DNA from: Candidatus Aminicenantes bacterium
GTDB lineage: Bacteria > Acidobacteriota > Aminicenantia > Aminicenantales > JAFGAV01
Length of the DNA: 64,000 nucleotides
Reading direction: 5' to 3'
Assembly (NCBI GenBank): GCA_963705895.1
Contig: OY970122.1
Coordinates: 2,914,774-2,978,773 of the forward strand
Shown here: positions 29,289 through 58,411 of the stretch, one piece after another
Position numbering within the stretch: position 1 is the stretch's first letter
Layout: every line of letters starts with the position of its first letter
The notes under the pieces: model-generated
What the model was told of the DNA's origin: nothing
Database searches by the model: none
Seen by the model: the letters and a program-made list of their open reading frames with translations, nothing else
Translations under genes and position numbers: made by a program

Positions 29289-29397
29289 GCACCGAACTCG
29301 TGTCCCTCTTTGTTGGGGGCATCCATAGAGTTGCACATATGTTTTGGGGCATAATCGCCTCTCCTCAGCCTCTATGTCGGAAGGGAGAACGCATGGG

Positions 29398-41709: not shown

Positions 41710-42011
41710 CGGGCGAACGCTGGCCTCTTCCGTAACCGCCGGCGGCAGGGAATTCCAGAAAACATCTCAATATCAAGTTACCACACCGGGGGCACTCCAA
41801 CAAGGATTCGTTGTCCTGGACTTCGAGGATCAAAGTCCGGCGTCAGCCCATCCCCGATTGGGGCCGGGTAACCCGCCGGCGGGCCATGACCCGAGCGCGC
41901 CCGGGACCCATCCCCCGGGCCCATGTGTTTGGGGTTGCCCGCAACGGAGAAATTTTGTATCTTGGGAATGCCATAATTCTTCGTCGGTCATATCTTCAAA
42001 GGAGTCCGATC

Positions 42012-43430
42012 ATGATTCATAAGCCCTCGGTCATCAAGCTCGACCAAATCGCCGACATCCTGGCCCGTGAGTTCAAGGGGCGGGACACCATCACCTGCTA
42101 TGTCGGCTCCAATGCGGCGGTGCCCACGGCCTCCCTGGAATCGCTGACCGCCGCCCTGAAAGCGCGCAGCCCCAAGCTTCCCTACATCAGGATGGTCCAT
42201 CTCCTTCTTCAGGGCCCCGTCCCGTACGTTGAGGAAGGGCTTCAGGACCGCGTCATGACCTATTCGATCTTCTCTGCGGGCCAAGTCCGAAAGGCGGCCA
42301 ACGAGGGGCGCGCCTTCTACTTGCCGTGCACCCTTGCCAACCTGGACAGCCTGATCGGCCACGGCCGGCCGTATCAGCCCGATGTCGCTCTTTTTAAGGT
42401 GCGGCCGCACGAGATCACCGGCGAGTACAGTCTGGGGTTGTCCGTGGAGGCCATCCACACGGCCGTCGATCAGGCCCGCGTGGTGATGGCCGAGGTCGAT
42501 TTCAGCATGCCCTTCACCCAGGGACAAAGCATTGTCGACGCCCAGTCCATCGATTACCTGATCGACGACGATGACGTCAAGAGCTGTTACGATTTCCCCA
42601 GTCCCGATTTTTCCAACTTGCCCAAGGCCGAGCACCGGATCGGGGAACTCATCACTCAATATTTCATCTGCGATGGAGCCACTCTGCAGGTGGGAATCGG
42701 ACAGATCCCGGATGCGGTTGTCGGGACGATCCATGAGTCGAACTACAAAGACCTCGGCATCCAAACCGAGCTCTACGGCGACGGTCTGATGCGCCTGCAA
42801 AGGTCGGGCATCGTGACCAACCGGCATAAGAAGCAGCACATGGGCTACAGCGCGACCTCCCTCATCATGGGCTCCACGGAGCTGTATGAGTTCGTCCATA
42901 TGCGAGCAGGAATCCAGATGACACCCTGCGCCATCACCAACGCCGCGGAAGTCGTCCGGCGCAACAGCCCTTTTATCTCCATCAACACGTCCATGGGTGT
43001 CGACCTGTTCGGCAATGTCTGGGCCGACTACATCGACGCCCACCGCTATTACAGCGGCGTCGGCGGCCAGCCGGATTTTGTCCGCGCCCTTAACGATCCC
43101 GCCTACGGCGTCCCCATCATCGCCTTTAAGAGCATCACCGACGACGGCCAATCGAAAATCGCCAAGGTCCATCCCTCGGGAGTCAGCTTGACGGCCTCGG
43201 CCTATGACGGCGTCGTCATCGTTGATGAATACGGGATCGCCGACCTGCGCGGCCTGACCGCCGGTGAAAAAGCCCTGGCCATCGCCAGCATCGCTCATCC
43301 CAAATATCGGGATGAGTATCTCAAGAGCATTTTCGACGACCCGATGTTTACCAAACCCCTCGGTGCGAGCCTGGGTCGGAAGCCGCTGGGCGTCACGATG
43401 TACGAAGGCCCGATCAAGCTCGAGGACTAA
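42012..43430 (+). CDS. Acetyl-CoA hydrolase/transferase family protein (Cat1/AbfT/4-hydroxybutyrate CoA-transferase-like)
   Basis: About 470 aa with a C-terminal GGQPDF-type region (SGVGGQPDFVRA). Confidence 0.85.
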   Translation: MIHKPSVIKLDQIADILAREFKGRDTITCYVGSNAAVPTASLESLTAALKARSPKLPYIRMVHLLLQGPVPYVEEGLQDRVMTYSIFSAGQVRKAANEGRAFYLPCTLANLDSLIGHGRPYQPDVALFKVRPHEITGEYSLGLSVEAIHTAVDQARVVMAEVDFSMPFTQGQSIVDAQSIDYLIDDDDVKSCYDFPSPDFSNLPKAEHRIGELITQYFICDGATLQVGIGQIPDAVVGTIHESNYKDLGIQTELYGDGLMRLQRSGIVTNRHKKQHMGYSATSLIMGSTELYEFVHMRAGIQMTPCAITNAAEVVRRNSPFISINTSMGVDLFGNVWADYIDAHRYYSGVGGQPDFVRALNDPAYGVPIIAFKSITDDGQSKIAKVHPSGVSLTASAYDGVVIVDEYGIADLRGLTAGEKALAIASIAHPKYRDEYLKSIFDDPMFTKPLGASLGRKPLGVTMYEGPIKLED

Positions 43431-43452: not shown

Positions 43453-43935
43453 TCAGAGCTTAAGGGACAGGCGGTAGCGGCTCCCCAAATCCAGCCTGAC
43501 GAAGGAGCAGGATTCGATCACCGCCAGCTCGGGCAGGTTCCACTTGGCGATGCAGGCGTAGATCTCTTTATAGCCCTTGCGGCGGGCGTGTTCGATCGCC
43601 TTCCGGTGGAGCGCCTTCGAGACCCCCTTGTTCCGGAACGCCTCGGAAACAAAGGTGATCTGCAGGTAGTACTCCGGCGGTTTCCAGAGGGGCGACCCGG
43701 ATAGGACGTCGTACATGTTGTCGACTTCAGGGGAGCCCAGTGAGGGACGGCCGATCATGTAGCCGATGATCCGGCCTCCGGCTTCGGCGACGAACGTCTC
43801 GTACCGTGTCCCCGGCTTCAGATAGCGGGTCCTGTAGTTGCGGAGGCCTGATTGGATTCGGACTTCCGGGAATTTTCGAGCGAGCTCGGATTCGAATTCG
43901 CGGACGAGGACAAGCACATTGGCCAAGTCGGACAT
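43453..43935 (-). CDS. GNAT family N-acetyltransferase
   Basis: Motif A region ITFVSEAFRNKGVSKALHRKAIEHARRKG. Start MSDLANV. Confidence 0.8.
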   Translation of the reverse strand: MSDLANVLVLVREFESELARKFPEVRIQSGLRNYRTRYLKPGTRYETFVAEAGGRIIGYMIGRPSLGSPEVDNMYDVLSGSPLWKPPEYYLQITFVSEAFRNKGVSKALHRKAIEHARRKGYKEIYACIAKWNLPELAVIESCSFVRLDLGSRYRLSLKL

Positions 43936-44135
43936 CCGATAGTTTCGGACTTTGAACTTGAAGCCCTCACTATCGGGGCGGCGCCCACCCTTTTGCTTGC
44001 CCCGGTCCCCGTCGTTTCGAATCATGCTCGGTTCGGCCGTATCATTCCTGCCGCTGATGTTGGATCCCCGTCGGGCGGCAGCCCCTCCCGCCGCTGGGGC
44101 CGGGCCGCGCCGGGCGGCTCGACAGACATCCATTA

Positions 44136-44918
44136 TTATCTTAAGAAAATCTTCTCCGGATCGACCTCCTCCCGGAGAATTCGGAGTTCTTCCTCGGTTG
44201 GAGGGATCGTTTCCACGGCCTCTTTGATATCCAGGGCGAAGCCGGTCGCCTCGGCGACCGATCGGGCCTTGAGGCCCGGATGATAGCTGGCCAAGTAGAT
44301 CTCCTTGGAATCCGCACGGAAGCGCATTACGCCCATAGTGGTGACGACCGTGTTTGGCCCGCCCCAGGGGAGGCCCGATTTTCGCCGGGTCGTCCCGCCC
44401 TCCAGCCAGCCCGGGCTCGTGATGTAGTCGACTTTTTCCGGGAAGCGGCGCTTTTCATGCTTGGCGATAATGATCGTCCGCCTGGCCAGGCAGGCGATGT
44501 CACAGGCTCCGCCGCTCCCCGAGAAGCGCACCGAGGGCCTCCGGGGATTCGGACCGATCGAGGTGCTGTTGATGTTGCCGAAACGGTCCACCTGGGCTCC
44601 GCTCAGGAAGCCGATATCCACGCGTCCCGCCTGGAGGACATAAGTGAAGACCTCCATCAGCCCGGCTGCGCTGGCGGCTCCGCGCATCACCCGAGGGTCG
44701 CCGACCGACATGGGCAGATGGGCCAATTGACTGTCCACCGTCCCCGCCTCAAAGACGATGATACACCGCGGGGCGTGAGTCCGCTGGGCGAGCATGACTC
44801 CCAGCATGGGCAGGCCGGTGCCGGCGAAAACCACCTCGCCGTCTCCGATCTCGCGAGCAGCAGCCACGGCCATCAGCTCGGTTAAGGTGTAATCAGAAGT
44901 CGTCATGGCTCTGGTCAC
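44136..44918 (-). CDS. CoA-transferase subunit B (glutaconate CoA-transferase/AibB-like)
   Basis: Family I CoA-transferase beta-subunit motifs (GSGGACDIA). Confidence 0.85.
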   Translation of the reverse strand: MTRAMTTSDYTLTELMAVAAAREIGDGEVVFAGTGLPMLGVMLAQRTHAPRCIIVFEAGTVDSQLAHLPMSVGDPRVMRGAASAAGLMEVFTYVLQAGRVDIGFLSGAQVDRFGNINSTSIGPNPRRPSVRFSGSGGACDIACLARRTIIIAKHEKRRFPEKVDYITSPGWLEGGTTRRKSGLPWGGPNTVVTTMGVMRFRADSKEIYLASYHPGLKARSVAEATGFALDIKEAVETIPPTEEELRILREEVDPEKIFLR

Positions 44919-45874
44919 CTCCGCTTGAGGTCGGGGCTGTAGCCGAAGCCGGGCGCGGCCCTAAGAGCATCGAGACGAGCCTGACCGCCCACGGCCTTTA
45001 AGTAGGCCTCATGGTCCCGGACGCCCAGAACGTACCTTTCTAGATAGCGCTGGAACCCGTCATCGTCCCGTGCCCCCTCATGGTATTCCTTCAATTGCAA
45101 AGGGTCATAATCATAATAGTTATAGACGGCGTAAGGGTGAGCTCCATAGGGCACGAGACAAACATGGGTCACAGCGAAATGCGGGATTGGATTTCGCTCG
45201 GGCTCACGGCGCAGGGAGTCTTCGTCGACGATCTCTTCCGCGGTCACGATGACCGTCCTCGCGCAGAGGGCCTGCTGGACGTCGGCGAAGGTCTGTCCCT
45301 CGATCCGCAAGGTGCCTTTCTCGGTCGCCTTCTGGACATGGAGGACGGCGAAGTCAGTGTGGATGGCCGGCACGAGAACCACCTGCTCTCCAGGCTCAAA
45401 AGGAGAGGCCATCACATGGAGTTTTTTGGAGGCCGTGTGCGGATCGGTCCTCCTCCGTGCCGGGCCCAAGGCCTCCTGTTCCAGAAGGTCGCTCCCCAGC
45501 AGGCTGCGAACCGGCATGAACGGGATGCCCATGGCCCCGGCCGTGAATCGGGCGACCATCGTGAAATTGCTGTAATCCTCCCACTCGATCCGCCCGCTCT
45601 CCACGGCCATCCGCCAGCGCGGGCCCACGGTGTTGAAGGCCTCATCGGCCTCGTAGGCAAGTTCCACCCTCTTGACGGCTCCGGCCCCGATCAGGATATC
45701 CCAATCCCCTCCCGGCGAATGTCCGAACAGGTAGAGGTCTTTCTTTTTCTGACGGATGAGTTCATAGACAAAGGCCATGGGATGACGCTGGGTAGTGAAA
45801 CCTCCGAAGGAGATCGTGGCGCCGTCTGGAATCAGGGCCGCGGCCGAGTGAAGGTCGATCACTTTTCCTGGCAT
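44915..45874 (-). CDS. CoA-transferase subunit A (glutaconate CoA-transferase/AibA-like)
   Basis: Family I CoA-transferase alpha subunit. ATGA overlap with subunit B. Divergent from the HMGCS gene. Confidence 0.85.
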   Translation of the reverse strand: MPGKVIDLHSAAALIPDGATISFGGFTTQRHPMAFVYELIRQKKKDLYLFGHSPGGDWDILIGAGAVKRVELAYEADEAFNTVGPRWRMAVESGRIEWEDYSNFTMVARFTAGAMGIPFMPVRSLLGSDLLEQEALGPARRRTDPHTASKKLHVMASPFEPGEQVVLVPAIHTDFAVLHVQKATEKGTLRIEGQTFADVQQALCARTVIVTAEEIVDEDSLRREPERNPIPHFAVTHVCLVPYGAHPYAVYNYYDYDPLQLKEYHEGARDDDGFQRYLERYVLGVRDHEAYLKAVGGQARLDALRAAPGFGYSPDLKRR

Positions 45875-46058
45875 GCGAATCCTCCTTCGATGGGGCCTAT
45901 TCTAGATCAGCTTCCTCCCTAAATCAATTCCGCATCTTGACTTCGCGCCGAAGATATGGAAGGATAAATAATCTTGAAACTGGCCAAGCGATCCTTTCCC
46001 TGGTTTTCACCCGTCCCCAAAGCTGAGGCCTAAGTCTGCCTGGAAGGAGGTCCCGTCC

Positions 46059-47105
46059 ATGTCCGGAATCATCGGCTATGGAGCCTACATTCCCCGGAAT
46101 CGAATCAAAGTCGAGGAGATTGCCAAGGTTTGGGGAGCGGACGCCCCGAGCTATAAAAAGGGGCTGCTGCTCGAGGAAAAATCCGTACCCTCCCCGGACC
46201 AGGATACGATCACCATGTCCGTGGAAGCCTCGAAGAATGCCCTAAGAAGGGCCGGCATCGATCCGCGGGAGATCGGAGCTGTTTATATCGGGTCGGAATC
46301 TCATCCCTACGCCGTGAAGCCGAGCGGGACCGTGTTGGCGGAGGCCCTTGGCGCCACGCCCGACGTGCACACCGCGGACCTTGAATTCGCCTGCAAAGCC
46401 GGGACGGAGGGCATGTTCATCGCATTAAGCCTGGTCCAGGCGGGCGCGGTCAAGTATGGCTTGGCCGTAGGGGCCGACACATCTCAAGGGGCGCCCGGCG
46501 ACGCGCTCGAATACTCGGCTGCGGCTGGCGCGGCGGCCTTCATCTTCGGCAAGGACCGGCTCGTGGCCGAGGCCCTGGAGACGTATTCGTACACGACCGA
46601 TACCCCGGACTTTTGGCGGCGCGAGTATCAATATTATCCGCAGCACGGCGGCCGGTTTACCGGAGACCCGGCCTATTTTAAACACGTCGTGGGCGCCGCC
46701 CAGGGGTTGTTGGCCAAGGCCAAGATGAAGCCGTCCGATTTCGACTACGTCATCTTCCATCAGCCCAACGGCAAGTTTCCGCTCCGTGCCGGGGAAATCC
46801 TGGGCTTCGAGAGGAAGCAGATCGAGCCCGGGTGGCTGGTGCCCAAACTGGGCAATACCTATTCAGGGTCATCTCCCCTCGGGTTGACGGCCACTTTGGA
46901 TATCGCCAAGCCCGGCCAGATGATCATGCTGGTTTCCTACGGCTCTGGAGCGGGAAGCGACGGTTTCGTTTTTCGCGTCACGGACCGGATCGACGAGGTT
47001 CGGGGCCTGGCCCCCCGGACGCGCGACCTTCTCGAACGGGACAAGGTCTACCTTGAGTACGGGGTGTACGCCAAGTACCGCCGCAAGATCCGGAAGGCGA
47101 GCTAG
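46059..47105 (+). CDS. Hydroxymethylglutaryl-CoA synthase, short archaeal-type (348 aa)
   Basis: MSGIIGYGAYIPRNRI...ADLEFACKAGTEG (Cys nucleophile). Lacks the C-terminal extension of bacterial MvaS. Confidence 0.9.
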   Translation: MSGIIGYGAYIPRNRIKVEEIAKVWGADAPSYKKGLLLEEKSVPSPDQDTITMSVEASKNALRRAGIDPREIGAVYIGSESHPYAVKPSGTVLAEALGATPDVHTADLEFACKAGTEGMFIALSLVQAGAVKYGLAVGADTSQGAPGDALEYSAAAGAAAFIFGKDRLVAEALETYSYTTDTPDFWRREYQYYPQHGGRFTGDPAYFKHVVGAAQGLLAKAKMKPSDFDYVIFHQPNGKFPLRAGEILGFERKQIEPGWLVPKLGNTYSGSSPLGLTATLDIAKPGQMIMLVSYGSGAGSDGFVFRVTDRIDEVRGLAPRTRDLLERDKVYLEYGVYAKYRRKIRKAS

Positions 47106-47114
47106 GGGGCAACC

Positions 47115-48269
47115 ATGAGAGATGTCGCTGTCATCGGTGTCGGTATGACCAAATGGGGCGAGCTGTGGGACAAGCCGCTCCGGACGATCTTCGTCGAATC
47201 CGCTCTGCTGGCCATCCAGGACGCCGGCCTGGACAAGATCGATTCCATGGTCGTCGGCTGCATGTCCTCGGGCCTGTTCATCGGCCAGGAGCACCTGGCC
47301 TCCCTTCTGTCCGATTACCTGGGCCGGAACCCCATCCCGGCCACGCGGGTGGAGTCGGCCTGCTGCTCGGGAGGGCTGGCCCTCCGCCAGGGCTTTATAG
47401 AGGTCGCGTCCGGGATCAGCGACGTGGTCCTTGTCGGAGGTGTAGAGAAGATGACCGATGTGACGGGCTGCGAGGCAACCTACGCCCTGGGGACAGCGGC
47501 CGACCAGGAGTATGAAGGTTACCATGGGCTGACGTTCCCCGGACTGTACGCCATGATGGCCGTGGCCCACATGCATCGATACGGAACCACCCGGGACCAG
47601 TTGTCGATGGTCGCCGTTAAAAACCATGACAACGGCTCGAAAAACCCGTTGGCCCAGTTCCCATCCAAGGTTACGATCGAAATGGTGAACCAATCTGTGC
47701 TGGTGGCCGACCCCCTGCGAATTTTGGATTGTTCACCCATCACCGACGGAGCCGCAGCCGTTGTCCTGTGTCCGCTGGACATGGCCAAGAAAATGAAGAA
47801 ACCCGTAGTGCGAATCACGGGCAGCGGCCAGGCCACGGATACGATCTCTCTCAGTTCCCGGAAAGATATCACCCGGCTCGAATCGACCCGCGTCGCGGCG
47901 GGCAAGGCCCTGGCTATGGCCGGCCGGAAGATCGAAGACATGGATCTGTTCGAAGTCCATGACTGCTTCACCATCGCCGAGATCATGATTACCGAAGCCC
48001 TGGGGCTTGCGGCCCCTGGTCAGGGCGGAAAGGCGGTCGAGGAGGGGGTGACCGGACTTCGGGGAAAGCACCCCGTCAACCCCAGCGGCGGGCTCAAGTC
48101 CAAAGGCCATCCGGTTGGAGCAACGGGCATCGCCCAAGCCGTGGAAGTCGTCAAGCAGCTTCGCGGCGAAGCCGGCCCGCGTCAAATTAAAAACGCCAAG
48201 CGGGGCCTCACCCAGAACATGGGGGGCACGGGCGGCAGCGCCCTCGTCCATATTTTTGAGGCGGATTGA
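47115..48269 (+). CDS. Thiolase (acetyl-CoA C-acetyltransferase), archaeal/SCP-x type
   Basis: [15 protein letters not shown]...ESACCSGG (Cys) and C-terminal ...GHPVGATG. Confidence 0.9.
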
Positions 48270-48281
48270 AAGGAGAGCCCG

Positions 48282-48674
48282 ATGCCTACACCCTCACGAT
48301 ACTGGCGTGAAATCCCCCAGCGCTACAGGCTGGAGGCGGAAAAATGCAAAGGCTGCAGCCTGATCCTGTTCCCACCCCGGCTGGTTTGTCCGCAATGCGG
48401 AAAGCAGGAATTCGAAAAAACGAAACTGGCCGGCACAGGAAAGCTTGTCACCTATACTATAATCCGGGTCGCGCCCGAGGGTTTCGAGGACCAGTCCCCC
48501 TACGCGGTCGGCATCGCCGAGCTGGACGACGGCGCCCACTTGACAGCCCAGGTTGTGGACTGCGATTTTTCACAGCTAAGAGTGGGACTGCGGGTCAAGC
48601 TCGAATTCCGCAAGATTCACGAGGACGGCGCGGCGGGAATTATTCATTACGGTTATAAGTTCGTCCCGGAATGA
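48282..48674 (+). CDS. DUF35 Zn-ribbon + OB-fold protein (scaffold of the thiolase/HMGCS complex)
   Basis: CKGCSLILFPPRLVCPQCG rubredoxin-like knuckle followed by an OB-fold. Confidence 0.85.
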   Translation: MPTPSRYWREIPQRYRLEAEKCKGCSLILFPPRLVCPQCGKQEFEKTKLAGTGKLVTYTIIRVAPEGFEDQSPYAVGIAELDDGAHLTAQVVDCDFSQLRVGLRVKLEFRKIHEDGAAGIIHYGYKFVPE

Positions 48675-48677
48675 ATC

Positions 48678-50285
48678 ATGTTTAGGATCGAATCCAAGGT
48701 CGACACCCAGAACCCGGACTATAAGCAGAATTTCGAACATCTCAGCCGGCAGGTGGCCGAGCACAAGGCCCTCTTGGCTAAAGTCCAGGAGGGAGGGCCG
48801 CCCAAGGCCCGTGAACTTCACAAATCCCGGAAGAAGCTCCTCGTCCGGGAGCGCCTGGACAGACTCTTCGACCGCAACACACCCTTCCTGGAACTGAGTC
48901 CCCTGGCCGCCTGGAATATGTACGACAACGAGGCGCCCGGGGCGGGAATGGTCACGGGCGTCGGCGTCGTCCACGGCCGCGAGGTGCTGGTCGTGGCCAA
49001 CGACGCCACGGTCAAGGGCGGGACCTATTTCCCCATGACCATCAAGAAGCACATTCGCGCTCAGGAAGTGGCCATGGAAAACCGGCTGCCCTGCATCTAC
49101 CTCGTCGATTCGGGCGGGATTTTCCTGCCGCATCAAGCCGGGACGTTTCCCGATAAGGAGCACTTCGGCCGAATCTTCTACAATCAGGCGCGACTGTCCG
49201 CCATGGGCATTCCCCAAATCTCGATCGTCATGGGTTCGTGCACGGCCGGGGGGGCCTACGTTCCGGCCATGAGCGACGAGACGGTCATCGTCAGGCGCCA
49301 GGGCACCATCTTCATCGGCGGCCCCCCTCTGGTCAAGGCGGCCACGGGCGAAGAGGTCACGGACGAAGATCTGGGCGGGGCCGACGTCCACTGCCGGATC
49401 TCCGGCGTCTCGGACTATTACGCTCAAAACGACGAACACGCCCTGGAGATCGCCCGCAACATCGTCGAAACCCTCGACCCTCCGCGGCGCTTCGAGCTTG
49501 GCAGGGCCGATCCCGAAGACCCCTACTACGATCCCCGGGAGATCTACGGGATTATTCCTCGCGACCTTCGCCGGCACTTCGACATCAAGGAGGTCATCGC
49601 CCGCCTCGTGGACGGCAGCCGCTTCCAGGAGTTCAAGGAACTTTACGCCCAGACGCTCGTGTGCGGTTTCGCCCGTATCATGGGCTATCCGGTCGGCATC
49701 CTGGCCAACAACGGCGTCCTCTTTTCGGAGAGCTCGCTCAAGGGAGCGCATTTCATCACCCTGTGCAGCATGCGCAAGGTGCCGCTCATTTTCCTCCAGA
49801 ACATCACCGGGTTTATCGTGGGCAAACAGTACGAACACCACGGAATCGCCAAGGACGGGGCCAAGCTCGTCCACGCCGTGGCCAATGCCGACGTGCCCAA
49901 GCTGACCGTGATCGTCGGCGGTTCCTACGGCGCCGGAAACTATGCCATGTGCGGCCGGGCCTACCAGCCGCGCCTCCTCTGGATGTGGCCCAACGCCCGG
50001 ATCAGCGTCATGGGCGGCGAGCAGGCAGCCGGCGTCCTGGTCACGGTCAAGGTCAAGCGGCTCCAGGAGCAGGGCCGACAAATGACGGAAGAAGAGAAGA
50101 AGGCCATGATCAAGCCCATCCTGGAAAAATACGAAGAGGAAGCCAGCCCCTGCTATAGCACAGCCAGGCTCTGGGACGACGGCATCCTCGACCCCTTGGA
50201 GACGCGCTCGGCCCTGGCCCTGGGAATCGCCATGAGCCTGAACGCGCCCATTCCGGACTACAAGGTTGGAATCTTCAGAATGTGA
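48678..50285 (+). CDS. 3-Methylcrotonyl-CoA carboxylase carboxyltransferase (beta) subunit-like acyl-CoA carboxylase
   Basis: 535-aa carboxyltransferase, two crotonase-fold domains. N-terminus resembles MccB/LiuB. Confidence 0.85.
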
Positions 50286-50310
50286 CCGGGAGCCGCACCA
50301 GGGGAAGGAT

Positions 50311-51105
50311 ATGAGGGACAAGTCCTACGCAACGATCCGAGTGTCGCGGGAAGGACAGACAGTCGGCCTTTGGCTGAACCGGCCCGAGGTGCACAACGCC
50401 TTCAACGCGCTGATGATTCGCGAGTTGCGGGACGCTCTCCGGATCATCAGGACCGACACGTCGGCGCGCGTCGTTATCCTCTCGGGACAAGGGGCTTCCT
50501 TTTGCGCCGGCGCCGACCTGAACTGGATGCGCGAAATCATACGTTTTTCCTACGAACAAAACCTTCAGGAATCCCTGGACCTGGCCGGATTCCTTTACGA
50601 GCTTTATAACCTGCCCAAGCCGACCGTCGCCCGCGTCAACGGCGCGGCCATCGGCGGCGGCGCAGGATTCGTCGCCGCGTGCGATATCGTCGTGGCTTCG
50701 TCCGAGGCCAAGTTCGGCCTGAGCGAGGTGAAGATCGGTCTGGTACCCGCCTGCATCGCGCCCTATGTCCTGCGGAAGATGGGAGAGGGGTGGTGCCGCC
50801 AGTATTTCCTGACGGGCGAGCGTTTCGATGCCAAGCGAGGCCGGGACATCGGACTGGTTCACATCGTGGCCAAGCCCGCGGAACTGGACAGCCGGATCGA
50901 GGAGCTCATCGGCCGCCTCCTGACGTCGGGGCCTGAAGCCATGGCCAAGGCCAAAGAGCTGCTGGGGCGCGTTCCGGGCATGAGCTTCAAGGAGGCTCAG
51001 CGCTTCACGGCCGAGATGATCGCCGGGCTGAGGACAAGCCCGGAGGGGCAGGAAGGCATGGCCGCTTTCCTTGAGAAACGAAAACCGAAATGGGTCAAGG
51101 ATTAG
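50311..51105 (+). CDS. Enoyl-CoA hydratase family (methylglutaconyl-CoA hydratase/LiuC-like)
   Basis: Crotonase motifs ...ASFCAGADL...GGG. Confidence 0.85.
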   Translation: MRDKSYATIRVSREGQTVGLWLNRPEVHNAFNALMIRELRDALRIIRTDTSARVVILSGQGASFCAGADLNWMREIIRFSYEQNLQESLDLAGFLYELYNLPKPTVARVNGAAIGGGAGFVAACDIVVASSEAKFGLSEVKIGLVPACIAPYVLRKMGEGWCRQYFLTGERFDAKRGRDIGLVHIVAKPAELDSRIEELIGRLLTSGPEAMAKAKELLGRVPGMSFKEAQRFTAEMIAGLRTSPEGQEGMAAFLEKRKPKWVKD

Positions 51106-51134
51106 AGAGATTGCAGGTGCCCAAAGAGAGGTCG

Positions 51135-52661
51135 ATGTTCCAGAAGATCCTAGTCGCCAACAGGGGTGAGATCGCGGTCCGCGTCATCCGGGCTTGTCGC
51201 GAGATGGGGATCGTCCCGGTCGCCGTCTATTCCGAGTCGGACCTGACAAGCCTGCACGTCCAACTGGCCGACGAAGCCGTCCTCCTCGGTCCGGCCCCGG
51301 CAGCGGACAGTTATCTCCACATGGACCGGATCATTCAAGCCGCCAGGCAGACCGGCGCCGAAGCCATCCACCCGGGTTACGGGTTTCTGGCCGAGAACTC
51401 CGACTTCGCCCGGCGATGCGAGAACGAGGGATTGGTCTTCATCGGGCCGAACTCACGGGCCCTGGCGCTTGTAGGCGACAAGGTCCGGGCCCGTCAGACC
51501 ATGGAAGCGGCGGGGGTGCCGATCATTCCCGGGATGATGTCCATTCCCCAGACCGTGTCGGAGTTTAAGAAGGAAGCTCGTCGGCTCGGCTATCCGGTGA
51601 TCGTCAAAGCCTCGGCGGGCGGCGGCGGCAAGGGGATGCGCGTTGTCCAAAGCGAAAAGGACCTGGAGCCAGCAGTCGAGGCCGGGAGGCGCGAGGCCAA
51701 GTCCGCCTTCGGAGACGAATCGGTCTATCTTGAAAAGTATATCGAGGAACCGCGGCATGTCGAGTTCCAGGTCCTGGCCGACTGTCACGGCCGGATGGTC
51801 CATCTCTTTGAGCGCGAATGCTCGATCCAGAGACGCCACCAGAAGCTTATCGAGGAAACTCCCTCCCCCGCCCTCGACCTGGAATTGAGGGCGAAAATGG
51901 GAGAGACGGCCAAGAAGGTCATGGCTGCGGCGGGCTATACGAACGCCGGGACGGTCGAGTTTCTCTTGGACAAAGAGCGTCGCTTCTACTTCCTCGAGGT
52001 GAACGCGAGGCTCCAGGTGGAGCATCCCGTGACCGAGTTCGTTACAGGCGTGGACCTGGTCCGTCAGCAGATCCTTATCGCCGCGGGAGAGCCACTGGCC
52101 TTCGGGCAGGAAGACATCCATCAGCGCGGCCATGCCATCGAATGCCGGATCTATGCTGAGGACGCCGCTCATGGCTTCCTCCCGTCCTCGGGCAAAATCC
52201 TGTTTCTCAAGGAGCCGAAAGGTCCCGGAGTCCGCCTCGACAGCGGGATTTTCGCGGGCTGGGAGGTGCCGGTCTACTATGACCCGATTCTGGCTAAGCT
52301 CATTGTCTGGGCCGAAAGCCGGGATCAGGCCTGCAGGAGGATGGCCGTCGCCTTGCAGGAGTACGTCATCCTGGGCATCCATACCACCATAGAATATTTG
52401 CGGGATGTCGTCCGCCATCCGGAATTCCGGGCCGGACGGCTGCATACGGGGTTCTTAGAAAAGAATTTTAAAGGCTGGGGAGAGAACAGCAAAGATGAGG
52501 CCGCGACGCGGTTGGCCTTGGCGGCCGCGGCTTTCGAAGAGATGGGCCGGCCCGCGCGGGCCGGGGACGGTGCGTCGCAGACCAAGCGCAGCGACTCTCT
52601 GTCTCCTTGGCAATCGCTGGGCCGCTGGAGGCTCGGAGGGCTGGATTCACATGGAATTTGA
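51135..52661 (+). CDS. Biotin carboxylase subunit of an acyl-CoA carboxylase (no fused BCCP domain)
   Basis: ATP-grasp motifs KASAGGGGKGMR and ...EMNARLQVEHPVTE. Confidence 0.9.
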   Translation: MFQKILVANRGEIAVRVIRACREMGIVPVAVYSESDLTSLHVQLADEAVLLGPAPAADSYLHMDRIIQAARQTGAEAIHPGYGFLAENSDFARRCENEGLVFIGPNSRALALVGDKVRARQTMEAAGVPIIPGMMSIPQTVSEFKKEARRLGYPVIVKASAGGGGKGMRVVQSEKDLEPAVEAGRREAKSAFGDESVYLEKYIEEPRHVEFQVLADCHGRMVHLFERECSIQRRHQKLIEETPSPALDLELRAKMGETAKKVMAAAGYTNAGTVEFLLDKERRFYFLEVNARLQVEHPVTEFVTGVDLVRQQILIAAGEPLAFGQEDIHQRGHAIECRIYAEDAAHGFLPSSGKILFLKEPKGPGVRLDSGIFAGWEVPVYYDPILAKLIVWAESRDQACRRMAVALQEYVILGIHTTIEYLRDVVRHPEFRAGRLHTGFLEKNFKGWGENSKDEAATRLALAAAAFEEMGRPARAGDGASQTKRSDSLSPWQSLGRWRLGGLDSHGI

Positions 52662-53157
52662 ATTCGTTGTGGACGGAAGCCGGCGGACCATCACTTTGGA
52701 CAAAAAAGACGATGTATTCATCATCCGAGATGGAGACCAGACCCAGGAGGTCGACATCCGGAGAATCTCTCCGTGCGAGCTCCTGGTGCGCAGGGGAGGG
52801 CACTCGGAGATAGTCTACATCGCCCGCGAGGGTGATCGCAGGTTCGTCTCCGCCGGAGGCCACTATTACGGCGTCTCGGATCCCGCTCAGGATTCGGGGC
52901 GCTATTCCGGCGGTGACGAAAGGACGCCGGAAGGGGGCACCTGCATCAAGGCGCCCATGCCGGGAAGAGTCATCAAGCTGAACGTCGTTGAAGGCGAAGA
53001 GGTGAAGAAGTATCAATCTCTGTTGATCGTCGAGGCCATGAAGATGGAAAACGACATCCGTTCGGCCGCGGACGGCGTGGTCAAGAAAATCCATGTTGTG
53101 GCCGGAGAGCTCGTGGACTCCGAAAAGACTCTCATCGAACTCGGACCGAAAACCTAG
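52651..53157 (+). CDS. Biotin carboxyl carrier protein (stand-alone BCCP)
   Basis: Biotinylation motif EAMKMEN. 11-bp overlap with the biotin carboxylase gene. Confidence 0.85.
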   Translation: MEFEFVVDGSRRTITLDKKDDVFIIRDGDQTQEVDIRRISPCELLVRRGGHSEIVYIAREGDRRFVSAGGHYYGVSDPAQDSGRYSGGDERTPEGGTCIKAPMPGRVIKLNVVEGEEVKKYQSLLIVEAMKMENDIRSAADGVVKKIHVVAGELVDSEKTLIELGPKT

Positions 53158-53200
53158 GGGCGAAACCGGAAGGGATCCTGCGATCCAGGAGGGCACGGAA

Positions 53201-54343
53201 ATGGACGACACGTATGCGGAATCCGTGAAGGAATGCCGGGAGATGGTGCGGGACTTCGCCCGCGCGGAGATCGCTCCCCATGTCCGGGAATGGGACGACA
53301 AGGCCTATTTCCCCGTCGAGGTTTTCCGCAAGCTCGGCGAACTGGGGCTGATGGGGATTTTGATCCCCGAGGAGTTCGGCGGAGCGGGGCTGAGCTATCG
53401 GCACTACGTCGCGATCCTGGAGGAACTGGGTGCCGTCGAGGGAGGCATCGGGCTGTCCGTCGCCGCCCATAATTCACTGGGCACAAATCATGCTTACATA
53501 TTCGGTTCCGGCGAGATTCGCAAGGAATGGGTGCCCCGGCTCGCCCGGGGTGAGGTCCTCGGCGCGTGGGGTCTCACGGAGCCGGAAGCGGGCTCGGACT
53601 CCGGGGCCACCAAAACCACCGCCGTCCGACAGGGAAAGGAATGGATCCTGAACGGCACCAAGAATTTCATCACCCATGCCGGAGCGGGCGGCGCGGCCGT
53701 GATCATGGCCCGGACGACTCCGGGAAAGGACCACCGCGGCATATCAGCCTTCTTCCTGCCGCTCAACAGCCCGGGGGTTACGGTCGGCAAACATGAGGAC
53801 AAGGTGGGGATGCGGATCTCGGATACGGCCTCACTGATCCTGGAGGACTGCCATGTCGGCGAGGGCGCCCTGCTCGGCCGCGAGGGCGACGGGTTCATCC
53901 AGGCCATGCAGGTGCTCGACGGCGGCCGGATCTCGATAGCCGCCCTGGCCGTGGGAATCGCCCGGGGAGCCATGGACGCGGCCGTCTCCTACGCCAAGCA
54001 GCGATGCCAGTTCGGACGGCCGATCGCCGCCTTCCAGGGAATCCGCTTCAAGCTGGCCGATATGGCCACGGAGGTCCAAGCAGCGAGGCTTCTCACCGAG
54101 CGCGCGGCCGACGAGAAGGACGCGGGGCGAAAAACCACGCTCATCTCCTCGCAAGCCAAGCTGTACGCCTCCGAGGTCGCGGTCCGGGCCGCGGAGAACG
54201 CCGTGCAGATTATGGGCGGATACGGCTACTGCAAAGACTACCCTGCGGAAAAATTCTGGCGCGACGCCAAGCTGTGCACCATCGGCGAGGGGACGAGCGA
54301 GATCCAGCGTCTGGTCATCGCCCGAGAGCTTATCGGTGAGTGA
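53201..54343 (+). CDS. Acyl-CoA dehydrogenase (isovaleryl-CoA dehydrogenase-like)
   Basis: ACAD N/middle/C domains. C-terminal ...YCKDYPAEKFWRDAKLCTIGEGTSEIQRLVIAREL. Confidence 0.9.
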   Translation: MDDTYAESVKECREMVRDFARAEIAPHVREWDDKAYFPVEVFRKLGELGLMGILIPEEFGGAGLSYRHYVAILEELGAVEGGIGLSVAAHNSLGTNHAYIFGSGEIRKEWVPRLARGEVLGAWGLTEPEAGSDSGATKTTAVRQGKEWILNGTKNFITHAGAGGAAVIMARTTPGKDHRGISAFFLPLNSPGVTVGKHEDKVGMRISDTASLILEDCHVGEGALLGREGDGFIQAMQVLDGGRISIAALAVGIARGAMDAAVSYAKQRCQFGRPIAAFQGIRFKLADMATEVQAARLLTERAADEKDAGRKTTLISSQAKLYASEVAVRAAENAVQIMGGYGYCKDYPAEKFWRDAKLCTIGEGTSEIQRLVIARELIGE

Positions 54344-54471
54344 AGACGGCGACCCCCGGCCTGTTCAGGGACCCGGAAAACGCCGGGCTTGAGTTTGCCG
54401 CTTGCGAGAGGCCTTGCTTTTTCGCCATCTCGTCGATCGCCGGAAATCGCGAATCCATCAAGGAGAAGAGA

Positions 54472-54981
54472 ATGACCATCGATGAAGCGATTAAGACCGC
54501 CCTTCAATACGAAAACCGTGTCGTAGAGGTTTACGATGAGGCAGTGGGCAAGACCGTCGACCCGACCGGAAAGCGGGTCTTCAAAGCGCTCGTCCTGGAG
54601 GAAAAGAAGCATGTCGAATACCTCGAGGCCAGGCTGGTCGAATGGAACAAGACGGGGCACGTGACGGCCGTCGAGTTGGGCACGATCGTTCCCTCCCGGA
54701 AGAGCATCGAGGAAGGGATTCAAAAGCTCAAGGCCCGGGTGTTAACCGAGGCTAAGGAAACGGAGGTGAGGCTCCTCAAGCGAGCTCTCGACGTCGAAGT
54801 CGAAACGAGCCGTTTCTACACCGAAGTCGTCCGGGAGCTTCCCCCCGAAGGCCAGAAGCTCTTCGAGCGGTTTGTCGAAATCGAACAAGGACACCAGGCT
54901 ATCGTTCAAGCCGAGATGAACGCCGTGTCCGGGCTTGGCTTTTGGTTCGATATGCAAGAGTTCACTCTCGAAGGCAGCTGA
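54472..54981 (+). CDS. Rubrerythrin/ferritin-like diiron protein
   Basis: Two E-x-x-H motifs (EEKKHVE, EIEQGH) in a four-helix pattern. Confidence 0.6.
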   Translation: MTIDEAIKTALQYENRVVEVYDEAVGKTVDPTGKRVFKALVLEEKKHVEYLEARLVEWNKTGHVTAVELGTIVPSRKSIEEGIQKLKARVLTEAKETEVRLLKRALDVEVETSRFYTEVVRELPPEGQKLFERFVEIEQGHQAIVQAEMNAVSGLGFWFDMQEFTLEGS

Positions 54982-55005: not shown

Positions 55006-56250
55006 CTAAGCCCGCCGATAGACGATGGCCACCACCGTCTTGTCGTTCCCGCCCATGTTCACGGAGAGAGCGTAAGGCCTCTGCGGCGAGATTTCGATCT
55101 GCCAGTTGCCGGCTTTTCCGGTGAGCTGCTGCCAGACCGTAACGGCCTGCCGCACGCCCGTGCCGCCCGTGGGATGCCCCCAGCCGATCAACCCGCCGCA
55201 GGTGTTGAAGGGCACGCTTCCCCCCCGGGAGGTTTCACCGGCCAGGATATAATCCGGTCCCTCGCCCCGGCCGGCAAACCCGACGGCTTCCACGGACATC
55301 AGCCCCGAGATTGTGAAACAATCATGGCATTCAACCGTTCCGATGTCTTTCAGAGCAATCCTCGCCGAATCGAGCGCCTTCGTTACGGCCCGGGCCGTCG
55401 TTTCCAGATAGGTCGGGTCCTCGGGAGGAACGGTCAGGTCGGCTTCGACCTGGCCCCAGCCGACGACTTCCACGGCCTGGGATTCGGGAAGGCCGGTCCG
55501 TTTCAATCCGTCTTCGGAGACGACGGCGATCGCGGCCGCCGCGTCCGAAACCTTGGAGCAGTCATAGACATTCAAATGATCGACAAAGCCCTTCGGGTTC
55601 GGCTCCGTCAGGGCCAGCGCTTCCAGGTCCGGACAGGTGTTATGGAATTCCTGGGCGGTTTCGCACAGACGGGCGTTTTCGACGGCGGCCCGGTACCAGC
55701 GGGCAAACGCACGCCGAGTCTTGTCGCGGCCATACTTATCAAAATAGGCGCCCGCCCGGTCGCTGAAAAGCGCGGGAAAGAAAAAGGCGTGACCCTTTTT
55801 TCGCTCGCCCCGGAACCAGCCGGCGCCGGCCAGGTAATCCGCGCCGTACACGGCCTTGACCGTGTTCTGGACTTCGACGCCAATCGTCAGGACGACGTCC
55901 GCGGTCTCGGCCAGGACGGACTTGAGCGCGGTCATGAGGGCCAACCCGCCGGAGCCGCAAGCCCCTTCGACCCGGCAACACGGCTTATACCGCAGGCTTG
56001 GGTCCACGGAGGGGATGAGGGCCGCCAAGTGGCCCTGCTTGTTGAACCGGGCCGCCATGAAGTTGCCGATTACTCCCTCGTCGACCCTCTCGCCGCCGCC
56101 GATCTGCTTCAGTGTGCCCTGGCCGGCTTCACGAATGAGCTCCTCGAGGCCGGGCCGGGGCTTCTTGGGGCTGAATTCCTTCCGCCCCGTGCCCATGGAG
56201 ACTGTCGTGTATCCCGCAGTCATGAAAATCCGTTTGCGCTTCTTGGTCAT
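55006..56250 (-). CDS. Thiolase-family protein (SCP-x/nsLTP-like thiolase domain)
   Basis: CRVEGACGSGG (Cys nucleophile) and ...GHPTGGTG C-terminal motif. Confidence 0.85.
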   Translation of the reverse strand: MTKKRKRIFMTAGYTTVSMGTGRKEFSPKKPRPGLEELIREAGQGTLKQIGGGERVDEGVIGNFMAARFNKQGHLAALIPSVDPSLRYKPCCRVEGACGSGGLALMTALKSVLAETADVVLTIGVEVQNTVKAVYGADYLAGAGWFRGERKKGHAFFFPALFSDRAGAYFDKYGRDKTRRAFARWYRAAVENARLCETAQEFHNTCPDLEALALTEPNPKGFVDHLNVYDCSKVSDAAAAIAVVSEDGLKRTGLPESQAVEVVGWGQVEADLTVPPEDPTYLETTARAVTKALDSARIALKDIGTVECHDCFTISGLMSVEAVGFAGRGEGPDYILAGETSRGGSVPFNTCGGLIGWGHPTGGTGVRQAVTVWQQLTGKAGNWQIEISPQRPYALSVNMGGNDKTVVAIVYRRA

Positions 56251-56261
56251 GGCATGTCCTC

Positions 56262-57602
56262 TCAATCGAAATAGGGATTGATCGGGCCGTAGGCGTGATA
56301 AAACCCGGTCAGCAGGACCGTATTGACGTCATTCTCCGAGGCCGCAACGCCGCTCTTGATCAGGCCCAGTCCGATGTCCTTGGATTTCCGGCCGTGGCGC
56401 CTGGCCAGGTCGGCACCGAGGGTTTTCATCCCAGAGAGCTGCTTGAAGTATTCCTCGAGGTAGCTCGCCTTCTGGGGGTCCTGGATGACGCTTTTCCAGG
56501 GTTTGGCCTGGCCCGGCAGCCCGCCCAGCCTCTCGTCGCACCGAGCCGCGATGTCCGAGACGGCGACATAGGATTTCCGGTCCGGGTCATAGACCCCGGC
56601 CGGGCGGCCCTTATCGTATTTTAGGAATCCGTCCTTCTGGGACCCGTCGACGAACTGGCCGCCCCGGACGCCGGTTGCGACCAGCCCGTCGATGAGCGGG
56701 CTGTGGAGCCCGGCGCCGGGAAGGCGGTCGTTCATAACGCGCAGGATGCTCTGACAGACATCGAGGCCGACATAGTCAACGAGCTGGAAGATACCCATGG
56801 GCCGGATGAGGAAATCCTGGCTGACCTTGTTCACCATGTAAACGGCGTCCACGAAACCGGACTCCTTGGCCAGGCTTTCGACCTCCGACAGGGCATAGAG
56901 GCCGTCCCTCATGAAGTGGCCGTTGCCGATGAACCCGGCCACATCCCGCGACGGCACGACGGTTTTGCGCAGCTTCTTGGCCAGCTCGACCGAGAAATCC
57001 CCCAGCGCGGAGAGTGAGGAATCGGCTCGGATCAGCTCCACCAGCTTCTGCACAGCCGGCGGATTGTAGAAGTGGAAGCCGACGATGCGTCCCTCAAGTT
57101 TCACTCGATCGTTCAACTCGGAGATGGGAATCGAGGAGGTGTTGGTCAGGAACCAGACGTCCCGCGAGTTGTGAGATTTGATTTTCGACAGGAGGTTGAC
57201 CTTGAGGTCTGGGTTCTCGTTGACCGCCTCGAAGACCAGTGTGGCGTTGTAGGACGCCTCGACCTGGGTGGAGGGCCGGACGATGGACATGACGTCCTGC
57301 ACGTACTGGCCGATGACCTCCTCATTTTCTATGAGATCCTCGCGCTTGGCGTAAGCTTTCCTCAGCCAGACGGCTTTTTTCTCTGCCGCTTTATGAACCT
57401 GGGTTCGGAGATACTCCAACAGCCCCGTGAGCATCTGGTCGGATATGTCCACAGCGTGGAGGACCCTGTCCTTGGGCGGCTGCCCGGCGTCCAGGCCCAG
57501 GTCGGCCATTTCCATGGCCGCGAGCAGGACGATGCCGCTCCCCATCTTGCCTGCGGCGCCCAGGACCGCTACGTTCTCGAAACGCTCGGCGTAATTCATC
57601 AT
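56262..57602 (-). CDS. 3-Hydroxyacyl-CoA dehydrogenase (NAD-binding + C-terminal dimerisation domains)
   Basis: VAVLGAAGKMGSGI Rossmann motif and FHFYNPP. 4-bp overlap with the thiolase. Confidence 0.85.
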   Translation of the reverse strand: MMNYAERFENVAVLGAAGKMGSGIVLLAAMEMADLGLDAGQPPKDRVLHAVDISDQMLTGLLEYLRTQVHKAAEKKAVWLRKAYAKREDLIENEEVIGQYVQDVMSIVRPSTQVEASYNATLVFEAVNENPDLKVNLLSKIKSHNSRDVWFLTNTSSIPISELNDRVKLEGRIVGFHFYNPPAVQKLVELIRADSSLSALGDFSVELAKKLRKTVVPSRDVAGFIGNGHFMRDGLYALSEVESLAKESGFVDAVYMVNKVSQDFLIRPMGIFQLVDYVGLDVCQSILRVMNDRLPGAGLHSPLIDGLVATGVRGGQFVDGSQKDGFLKYDKGRPAGVYDPDRKSYVAVSDIAARCDERLGGLPGQAKPWKSVIQDPQKASYLEEYFKQLSGMKTLGADLARRHGRKSKDIGLGLIKSGVAASENDVNTVLLTGFYHAYGPINPYFD

Positions 57603-57619
57603 TCTCTCTCCTGTCGGTC

Positions 57620-58399: not shown

Positions 58400-58411
58400 T
58401 GTCGGCCTCCT

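Follow-up and report, generated by a model that had tools for sequence, protein, structure and literature searches.

We describe a tightly packed operon of eight genes in a 64-kb stretch of a Candidatus Aminicenantes genome (contig OY970122.1; hereafter the window). A predicted archaeal-type complex for the synthesis of HMG-CoA (3-hydroxy-3-methylglutaryl-CoA) is encoded there together with a predicted 3-methylcrotonyl-CoA carboxylase (MCC), an enoyl-CoA hydratase and an acyl-CoA dehydrogenase (ACAD). The operon spans positions 46059-54343, and two genes of the glutaconate CoA-transferase (Gct) family are transcribed divergently from it. Each of the encoded proteins belongs to a known family; it is their combination, and its occurrence in Aminicenantes, that is new. 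We tentatively read the operon as a device in which both halves run forward and deliver HMG-CoA to a consumer encoded elsewhere, probably the mevalonate route. Aminicenantes are abundant but uncultured in peat, sediments and digesters, and their carbon flow and lipid precursors are therefore of ecological relevance. The fusion of the two gene sets was unexpected, and no new chemistry has been shown so far.

An eight-gene operon conserved among Aminicenantes

Pfam and NCBIfam scans of the ten genes between 44136 and 54343 agreed with the initial annotation of this DNA in coordinates and in families (Table 1). The eight plus-strand genes follow one another with intergenic spacings of -11 to +43 nt. 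In three of them the reading frame opens upstream of the probable start, namely in the hydratase (open from TTG 50266, probable start 50311), the biotin carboxylase (BC; open from ATG 51090, probable start 51135) and the ACAD (open from ATG 53093, probable start 53201).

To compare the arrangement with that of relatives, the window proteins were mapped onto each of 80 genome loci around GctA homologues. Gene order and orientation are kept in 13 Aminicenantes loci (L002, L003, L005-L010, L012, L014, L015, L017 and L019), and the arrangement kept there includes both the divergent gctAB pair and the gene of the acetyl-CoA hydrolase/transferase family that converges on it. Because order and orientation recur in these 13 loci, the arrangement reflects more than chance. 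The nearest genomic relatives are Candidatus Aminicenantes metagenome-assembled genomes (MAGs), with GctA identities of up to 88%. Most genes show 66-89% amino-acid identity across the 13 loci, with the biotin carboxyl carrier protein (BCCP) at 44-58%. The HMG-CoA synthase (HMGCS) is the best-conserved protein of the set (85-89%); identities are 81-85% for the thiolase, 84-87% for the carboxyltransferase, 66-73% for the hydratase and 70-74% for the BC. Two of the loci, L017 and L019, carry a 44-45% homologue on the opposite strand in place of the operon ACAD. Homologue searches with GctA and DUF35, which were filled by close relatives, brought up no linkage of HMGCS to MCC outside Aminicenantes. 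In one Aminicenantes genome a 3.4-kb insert with five open reading frames (ORFs) without a Pfam family separates gctA from gctB (L014:10961-14398).

Much of the initial annotation is borne out by these data. It had described an archaeal-type trio in the order HMGCS (348 aa), thiolase and DUF35, followed by MCC-like genes, and we find an archaeal-type trio (549 bits to TIGR00748; 478 and 375 bits to chains 6ESQ_I and 6ESQ_A) co-operonic with an MCC (carboxyltransferase 733 bits to MCC beta). An enoyl-CoA hydratase is likewise in the operon, of the LiuC/AtuE type and with a putative function (272 bits to PRK05674, under its cutoff of 426). BC and BCCP are separate genes, in different frames in the window and in 13 relatives, and Gct-like subunits A and B lie divergently upstream (PF01144, minus strand, 44136-45874). 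The cluster was also said to lack an HMG-CoA lyase, and no HMGL-like domain was found in 69 window reading frames.

Table 1. Features of the locus and its surroundings, operon genes first (positions are those of the window)
Feature	Position	Strand	Size	Basis or remark
Archaeal-type (short) HMGCS, operon gene 1	46059-47105	+	348 aa	TIGR00748
SCP-x-type acetoacetyl-CoA thiolase, predicted HMGCS partner	47115-48269	+		PF22691 (Thiolase_C_1), PF00108
DUF35 predicted scaffold protein, zinc ribbon and OB fold	48282-48674	+		PF12172 (zf-ChsH2), PF01796 (OB_ChsH2_C)
Predicted MCC beta (carboxyltransferase)	48678-50285	+		Bit scores to structure chains
LiuC/AtuE-type enoyl-CoA hydratase, putative 3-methylglutaconyl-CoA hydratase	50311-51105	+		PF00378
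Predicted MCC biotin carboxylase subunit	51135-52661	+		PF00289, PF02786, PF02785
Separate BCCP	52651-53157 (in ORF 52495-53157)	+		PF00364, motif EAMKME
Short-chain/butyryl-CoA-dehydrogenase-type ACAD, last operon gene	53201-54343	+		Bit scores, motifs
GctB-like	44136-44918	-	260 aa	PF01144
GctA-like	44915-45874	-	319 aa	PF01144
Divergent intergenic region	45875-46058		184 bp	Promoter-like boxes conserved for both transcription units
Acetyl-CoA hydrolase/transferase-family CoA-transferase	41811-43430	+		PF13336, PF02550; convergent with gctB
GNAT-family acetyltransferase	43453-44133	-		PF00583; downstream of gctB
Rubrerythrin/ferritin-like gene	54472-54981	+		Weak PF02915; between two convergent acyl-CoA operons
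Short-chain beta-oxidation operon (ACAD2, crotonase, 3-hydroxyacyl-CoA dehydrogenase, SCP-x-type thiolase)	55006-59557	-		Pfam, NCBIfam
Split methylmalonyl-CoA-mutase-type enzyme (B12-binding small subunit and large subunit) and MeaB GTPase	59585-62689	-		PF02310, PF01642, PF03308

The first three genes resemble the archaeal HMG-CoA-forming complex

For the first three genes we used the solved complex of Methanothermococcus thermolithotrophicus (6ESQ) as the reference. The HMGCS scores 549 bits against the archaeal equivalog TIGR00748 (cutoff 353) and 478 bits against 6ESQ_I, with which it shares the identical segments SESHPY, EFACKAGT and FHQPNGKF; these we take to carry the catalytic Glu, Cys and His. 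The thiolase reaches 375 bits against 6ESQ_A and 541 bits, above cutoff, against PRK06064, while its 543 bits against the more specific equivalog NF053570 fall under that model's cutoff of 600. It retains the sequence HDCF at the HDxF motif, which is typical of archaeal acetyl-CoA acetyltransferases and has been lost in repurposed bacterial complexes (PMC12960953). In the DUF35 protein the CxxC...CxxC zinc ribbon is intact; among the best 120 matches listed, all homologues are 129-131 aa long and the few with a named source are from Aminicenantes. In sequence the trio is thus closely related to the archaeal complex of known structure.

We also considered a Friedel-Crafts acylase complex of the Phl/Muc type and ruled it out, as the HMGCS scores 221 bits against PhlA vs 478 for the archaeal HMGCS, the thiolase, which retains the HDxF motif, reaches about 104-116 bits with PhlC vs 375 with its archaeal counterpart. 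Among the more distant HMGCS representatives, many (P0242, P0249, P0252, P0255, P0266 and others) are 480-506 aa long, with the HMGCS part beginning at about residue 140-160. This layout suggests natural fusions with an N-terminal domain, possibly DUF35.

The other five genes encode a predicted MCC, a hydratase and a short-chain-type dehydrogenase

The carboxyltransferase scores 733 bits against the MCC beta subunits of Pseudomonas aeruginosa and human (3U9R_B and 8J4Z_J), 463 bits against the beta subunit of geranyl-CoA carboxylase, about 200-285 bits against propionyl-CoA carboxylase and other acyl-CoA carboxyltransferases, and 141-167 bits against the glutaconyl-CoA decarboxylase GcdA. It is predicted on this basis to be a bona fide MCC beta subunit. 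The same scores rule out a geranyl-CoA carboxylase of the Atu pathway (463 vs 733 bits). Classical glutamate fermentation by Gct, Gcd and Hgd was ruled out as well: the carboxyltransferase resembles MCC beta and not GcdA, a BC is encoded and there are no hgd genes, domain scans of the window having found neither hgd nor gcd genes of the 2-hydroxyglutarate pathway.

The MCC alpha subunit would typically be a single BC-BT-BCCP polypeptide, and that is not what we find. The gene is split inside the BT region, giving a BC of 508 aa and a BCCP of 168 aa, with an 11-nt overlap between the BCCP start and the BC stop. The BC comprises the BC domain and the start of the BT domain, and its alignment to human MCC alpha reaches residue 494; its scores of about 510-524 bits against MCC alpha and other BCs do not discriminate among carboxylases. 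Between BC and BCCP the reading frame changes, both in the window and in each of the 13 relatives. Because the frame change occurs in every one of these relatives, the split is genuine, and a frameshift artefact is ruled out. Solved MCC structures have two subunits whereas the Aminicenantes enzyme would have three (beta, BC and BCCP), and we regard the split alpha subunit as a predicted variant architecture that is no argument against MCC activity. The presence of a BC and of a BCCP with the AMKM motif argues for an ATP-dependent carboxylase rather than a decarboxylase.

The hydratase gene sits between the genes for MCC beta and MCC alpha, and we take the hydratase gene in the liuB-liuC-liuD order of Pseudomonas to lie likewise between the MCC genes. 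The best NCBIfam match of the hydratase is PRK05674, a gamma-carboxygeranoyl-CoA hydratase, at 272 bits and under the equivalog cutoff of 426. Among PDB entries 3I47 and 4KPK come first (about 200 bits), with AtuE (4ZU2) at 143 bits, and both the window protein and 3I47 carry the motif GGGAG.

The initial annotation had called the ACAD isovaleryl-CoA-dehydrogenase-like, a label that did not hold. The protein scores 402 bits against Thermus 1WS9, 346 against the short-chain acyl-CoA dehydrogenase (SCAD) of rat and 353 against the butyryl-CoA dehydrogenase (Bcd) of Clostridioides difficile vs 243-272 bits against isovaleryl-CoA dehydrogenases (IVDs). The Glu of its motif IGEGTSE aligns with that of the YEGT motif in 5LNX and 5OL2, and its LDGGRI places a Gly at the position where IVD carries Glu254. 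We take Glu254 to be the catalytic base of IVD, and the Glu of the YEGT/IGEGT motif to be that of the SCAD/Bcd type. The operon ACAD is therefore assigned, by its scores and motifs, to the SCAD/Bcd type and is predicted not to be an IVD orthologue. The ACAD2 of the convergent beta-oxidation operon is of the SCAD/Bcd type too, which rules out either dehydrogenase as the IVD, so that a LiuA with the IVD catalytic base, as in a liu cluster, is not found here.

HMG-CoA as the proposed meeting point of two modules

We propose that two known modules have been joined in one operon at their sole common metabolite, HMG-CoA. In the first, the thiolase, HMGCS and DUF35 protein would convert three acetyl-CoA to HMG-CoA. 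The second would be the mid-section of the leucine/isovalerate pathway, in which the ACAD would yield 3-methylcrotonyl-CoA, MCC (beta, BC and BCCP) would carboxylate this at the expense of ATP to 3-methylglutaconyl-CoA, and the LiuC-type hydratase would convert the latter to HMG-CoA. Both modules would run in their usual, thermodynamically favoured direction, so that HMG-CoA would arise from two sources, acetyl-CoA on the one hand and leucine or isovalerate on the other, and would be drained by an enzyme encoded beyond the window, most plausibly by HMG-CoA reductase and the mevalonate route. We infer the direction of flux, the nature of the sink and the substrates of the ACAD and of the neighbouring transferase. 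The proposal that both halves run forward into such a consumer is one we prefer while granting it somewhat less than an even chance.

Several observations are consistent with the joint supply of HMG-CoA. It is supported by the packing of eight genes behind one conserved promoter region, in an order kept in 13 genomes. In the archaeal complex the thiolase reaction, unfavourable towards synthesis, is drawn forward by the favourable HMGCS reaction (PMC12960953). There is also precedent for the convergence of the two routes: in caprazamycin biosynthesis an HMGCS route (Cpz5) and the Liu pathway of the host feed one pool of 3-methylglutaconyl-CoA and HMG-CoA (PMC9636800), and in trypanosomatids leucine is reported to feed sterol synthesis (PMC5993337). 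The genes around the operon also agree with a consumer of amino acids and short acyl-CoAs. A lyase acting beside a co-expressed HMGCS would make a thioester-wasting cycle, so that a different sink, reductase and the mevalonate route, would be more coherent. If this reading is true, the locus could be the first operon in bacteria that is given over to supplying isoprenoid synthesis from leucine as well as from acetyl-CoA.

Pfam scans of 69 window reading frames, alternative frames included, found neither an HMGL-like nor an HMG-CoA-reductase domain, and tblastn searches for lyase and reductase with rough queries gave no match in the window or in the related Aminicenantes loci. The genome measures at least 3.3 Mb, of which these negatives cover 64 kb. 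Within the window there is thus no lyase corresponding to the LiuE of a liu cluster.

A number of points weigh against the joint supply of HMG-CoA for the mevalonate route. The window showed neither an HMG-CoA reductase gene nor any other gene of that route. A survey of the pathway gives Chloroflexi as the only bacteria known to have an archaeal-type mevalonate pathway, lists neither Acidobacteria nor Aminicenantes with the main phyla that carry mevalonate genes, and finds that bacterial mevalonate genes usually cluster together (PMC6107057), whereas here the HMGCS clusters with liu-type genes. As the ACAD is not an IVD orthologue, the entry of isovaleryl-CoA is assumed from context only. Further, a self-contained linear pathway, whether it degrades isovaleryl-CoA through a reversed complex or makes isovaleryl-CoA from acetyl-CoA, would explain the co-transcription of all eight genes without an unseen enzyme.

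The first of these linear pathways turns on the missing lyase. The thiolase/HMGCS/DUF35 complex may have been recruited in reverse, in place of HMG-CoA lyase, so that the operon would encode a single lyase-free route from isovaleryl-CoA to three acetyl-CoA. HMG-CoA and CoA would give acetoacetyl-CoA and acetyl-CoA, followed by thiolysis (overall HMG-CoA + 2 CoA -> 3 acetyl-CoA), which would replace both the lyase and the activation of acetoacetate and save one thioester per leucine. All operon genes would then serve a single pathway, one step each, without the need for a further enzyme. In Desulfococcus multivorans the isovalerate cluster has a lyase gene along with MCC (PMC5109826), and none was found in the window or in the flanks of the 13 relatives. 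The thiolase step is moreover unfavourable in the synthetic direction and has to be pulled by HMGCS (PMC12960953), and the catabolic surroundings of the operon agree with a degradative role. On the other side, the HMGCS is about two-thirds identical to the biosynthetic enzyme of a methanogen and shows no visible adaptation, our literature searches brought up no description of this kind of route, and the searches for the lyase covered the window and the related loci only.

The Pseudomonas liu cluster presumably also includes a lyase gene. With approximate energies of ~+27 and -30 kJ/mol for the two steps, the reaction 3 acetyl-CoA = HMG-CoA + 2 CoA lies near equilibrium, and citrate synthase, which runs backwards in the reversed oxidative TCA cycle, offers a chemical parallel, but we know of no HMGCS shown to run in reverse in vivo. 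We consider the reversed complex unlikely. Were it real, it could be a reversible HMGCS complex by which amino-acid-fermenting sediment bacteria save energy.

The divergent Gct-family genes are predicted to encode a true CoA-transferase

The two genes upstream of the operon had been described in the initial annotation as subunits of the AibA/AibB type, which in myxobacteria act as a 3-methylglutaconyl-CoA decarboxylase. Our comparisons contradict this. Subunit A scores 239 bits against GctA of Acidaminococcus (1POI_A) vs 102 against AibA (5MZW_A), and subunit B scores 215 bits against GctB (1POI_B) vs 74-76 against the AibB chains, the alignments to 1POI being full-length (residues 4-317 in A and 8-259 in B). 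The conserved catalytic Glu of Gct is replaced by Cys56 in AibB (PMC7756340). In the window subunit B, Glu57 (in VFEAG) aligns with the catalytic Glu54 of GctB (in VESG), and the AibB variant chain 5N01_D has an Asn at this position. Among 71 homologues in the fetched loci the column holds Glu in 66, Gln in five and Cys in none. The AibA/AibB assignment is therefore ruled out by the bit scores, by Glu57 in place of Cys and by the occurrence of orthologues unlinked to the operon. On bit scores the subunits group instead with bona fide glutaconate CoA-transferases, one half of the outcome that the initial annotation had itself named as speaking against its reading. Taken as a whole, that reading stands as regards the cluster, its lack of a lyase, the archaeal-type complex and the MCC, and falls as regards the AibAB and IVD labels. 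The Gct-family genes are predicted to encode a real CoA-transferase that keeps its catalytic Glu and is not a 3-methylglutaconyl-CoA decarboxylase, which removes a tempting annotation for Gct-like genes beside this operon.

The five homologues with Gln in place of the catalytic Glu (IIFQAGT) are GctB orthologues from Chloroflexota, Hadarchaeota and Bacteroidota MAGs (L024, L030, L034, L055 and L056). They could be inactive or differently acting variants, could carry a residue that is converted post-translationally, or could reflect a one-base sequencing difference.

GctA has thousands of metagenomic homologues, with Aminicenantes and Acidobacteriota as source names, and GctAB orthologues of 67-78% identity from Chloroflexota and other Aminicenantes either form a pair on their own or belong to different operons. 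Because orthologues occur in such unrelated contexts, the Gct pair is not obligately tied to the operon. Its steadier partner in Aminicenantes is the convergent acetyl-CoA hydrolase/transferase-family gene, which is kept in L045 where the operon is absent. In a Caldilineaceae MAG (L024:95-10571) GctAB orthologues of 75% identity end an operon of carboxyltransferase, OAD_gamma, BCCP and OAD_beta genes, which encodes a Na+-translocating acyl-CoA decarboxylase, and are followed by PrpB-, citrate-synthase- and PrpD-like genes of the methylcitrate cycle. This context ties the GctAB clade there to dicarboxylate or propionate metabolism. In three Hadarchaeota loci (L058:6866-15423, L055 and L064) GctAB homologues of 57-61% identity are flanked by FdrA-like (Ligase_CoA)/AllG-like and AllH-like genes. 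The same three loci have a thiolase-DUF35 pair near GctAB and no HMGCS within the locus. We regard the window transferase as a loosely associated neighbour of the operon that probably activates or releases a short (di)carboxylic acid.

These results bear on the second linear pathway, in which the operon would make isovaleryl-CoA, for instance to prime iso-branched lipids, by the sequence three acetyl-CoA to HMG-CoA, 3-methylglutaconyl-CoA, 3-methylcrotonyl-CoA and isovaleryl-CoA, in parallel to the alternative (Aib) pathway of myxobacteria. The gene order roughly matches this sequence, the cluster has no lyase, and the HMGCS gene lies beside Gct-family genes as mvaS is reported to do in the aib operon (PMC5389471). 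The ACAD is of the Bcd type, with 5OL2 among its top matches, a type that is reductive in clostridia when paired with Etf. However, the Gct-like proteins keep the transferase Glu and are far nearer to Gct than to AibAB, and with AibAB excluded the biosynthetic direction requires both MCC and ACAD to be reversed. Decarboxylation would have to come from an ATP-dependent carboxylase running backwards, since a BC is encoded and the operon has no membrane decarboxylase subunit, unlike that of L024. Further, the scanned ORFs around the operon include neither an AibC-type (MDR) reductase nor an AibR/TetR regulator, and no etf genes were found among the scanned window ORFs. We judge this direction very unlikely; if real, it could be a second, independent route to isovaleryl-CoA.

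A further scheme is conventional leucine/isovalerate catabolism with a lyase encoded elsewhere. Acetoacetate would then be activated by GctAB or by the neighbouring enzyme of the acetyl-CoA-transferase family, the thiolase/DUF35 pair would cleave acetoacetyl-CoA, and HMGCS would have been kept with its partners for historical reasons or for an unrelated anabolic need. Two CoA-transferases directly adjoin the operon, thiolases are freely reversible, and a Gct-type pair also lies beside thiolase-DUF35 in the Hadarchaeota loci that have no HMGCS in the locus. This scheme is nonetheless quite unlikely: HMGCS is the first gene of the operon and its best-conserved product (85-89% identity), which disfavours a passenger role, HMGCS together with a lyase would amount to a futile hydrolysis of acetoacetyl-CoA, and GctAB is not obligately linked to the operon.

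Alternatively, GctAB could serve as an outlet, exchanging CoA in either direction between acetate and HMG-CoA or 3-methylglutaconyl-CoA, so that free 3-hydroxy-3-methylglutarate or 3-methylglutaconate would be made or used. Both acids are C5-dicarboxylate analogues of glutaconate and glutarate, which we take the Acidaminococcus enzyme to use as substrates (the window subunits score 239 and 215 bits against it), and the divergent layout with conserved promoters is retained in 13 genomes. Against this, orthologues of 67-78% identity stand alone or with a Na+-translocating decarboxylase and methylcitrate-cycle genes, so that the clade is not specific to this pathway, and we know of no physiological role for free 3-hydroxy-3-methylglutarate in such bacteria. 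An outlet of this kind appears highly improbable.

Intergenic region and wider surroundings

Ribosome-binding sites (GGAGG) lie upstream of both HMGCS and GctA. In an alignment of 15 divergent intergenic regions, promoter-like boxes are conserved on the plus side (TTGACTT...TATGGAAGGATA) and on the minus side (TTGATT-17-TAGAAT), and no conserved palindromic operator was seen. We therefore rejected a conserved operator between the two divergent units, conservation being limited to the promoter-like boxes. Scans of the window for tRNAs and Rfam families gave no matches.

Beyond gctB, the acetyl-CoA hydrolase/transferase-family gene probably starts farther downstream than its ORF as listed (41811-43430), and its product is a distant match to the butyryl-CoA:acetate CoA-transferase model TIGR03948 (167 bits, under cutoff). 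It adjoins GctB across the Aminicenantes loci, including L045. The GNAT gene has a counterpart in only one relative among the fetched loci (L009) and is unrelated to the GNAT-like ORF of the Hadarchaeota loci.

On the other side, terminator-like hairpins at 54372-54417 follow the ACAD gene and precede the rubrerythrin/ferritin-like gene. The latter is probably not part of the system; the related loci lack it, and their ACAD gene directly adjoins the next thiolase gene. That thiolase belongs to the convergent beta-oxidation operon and adjoins the main operon in the relatives. Next to the beta-oxidation genes lies the mutase-type enzyme (TIGR00641 at 736 bits, TIGR00640 and TIGR00750), which has an archaeal-style split with a separate B12-binding subunit. 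Other products encoded in the window are two peptidases (M20 and an S8 subtilase), AccD, a beta-barrel protein of the outer membrane and an F-type ATP synthase. The neighbourhood looks catabolic and geared to amino acids and short acyl-CoAs, and the beta-oxidation operon, the mutase and the M20 and S8 peptidases indicate that the host fits a consumer of such compounds. Window positions 26000-30000 have a G+C content of 0.535-0.547 vs about 0.61 elsewhere. They include a weakly matching piece of a phage integrase and an amino-acid-permease ORF that is cut short, and a mobile element may have left them behind.

Comparison with known systems

Literature searches found no description of an HMGCS complex combined with an MCC-type operon, and those on mevalonate, isovalerate or isoprenoid metabolism in Aminicenantes gave nothing informative. 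The operon shares with the archaeal thiolase/HMGCS/DUF35 complex three adjacent genes, a short HMGCS, an SCP-x-type thiolase with the HDxF motif and a DUF35 protein with zinc ribbon and OB fold. It differs in its host, a bacterium whose phylum is not known to have an archaeal-type mevalonate pathway (PMC6107057). Further, the Aminicenantes trio is co-operonic with MCC, hydratase and ACAD and not with mevalonate genes.

The order MCC beta, hydratase (in Aminicenantes a putative 3-methylglutaconyl-CoA hydratase), MCC alpha and an ACAD in the operon are shared with the liu cluster of Pseudomonas aeruginosa (liuRABCDE) and with the isovalerate cluster of Desulfococcus multivorans. Unlike these, the Aminicenantes operon has no HMG-CoA lyase and no LiuR-type regulator. 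It also departs from the liu clusters in having an ACAD of the SCAD/Bcd type in place of IVD, a split MCC alpha and an HMG-CoA-forming complex at its front.

In the aib operon of Myxococcus xanthus (aibR-aibA-aibB-aibC-mvaS, with LiuC) Gct-family A and B genes likewise lie beside an HMGCS gene and a 3-methylglutaconyl-CoA hydratase/dehydratase takes part. However, the window subunit B has Glu and not Cys, both subunits are nearer to Gct, the HMGCS is of the archaeal type and not MvaS, the AibC reductase and the TetR regulator are lacking, and an MCC is encoded. The likeness to the myxobacterial operon is thus only superficial. With GctAB of Acidaminococcus fermentans (1POI) the window pair shares two subunits (319 and 260 aa), full-length alignment and the catalytic Glu, although no genes for 2-hydroxyglutaryl-CoA dehydratase or glutaconyl-CoA decarboxylase lie near it.

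Finally, the caprazamycin system (PMC9636800) and that reported for trypanosomatids (PMC5993337) resemble the proposed scheme in that routes derived from acetyl-CoA and from leucine meet at a pool of C6 CoA esters. The two routes are encoded apart in those systems, whereas in Aminicenantes they would be brought together in a single operon.

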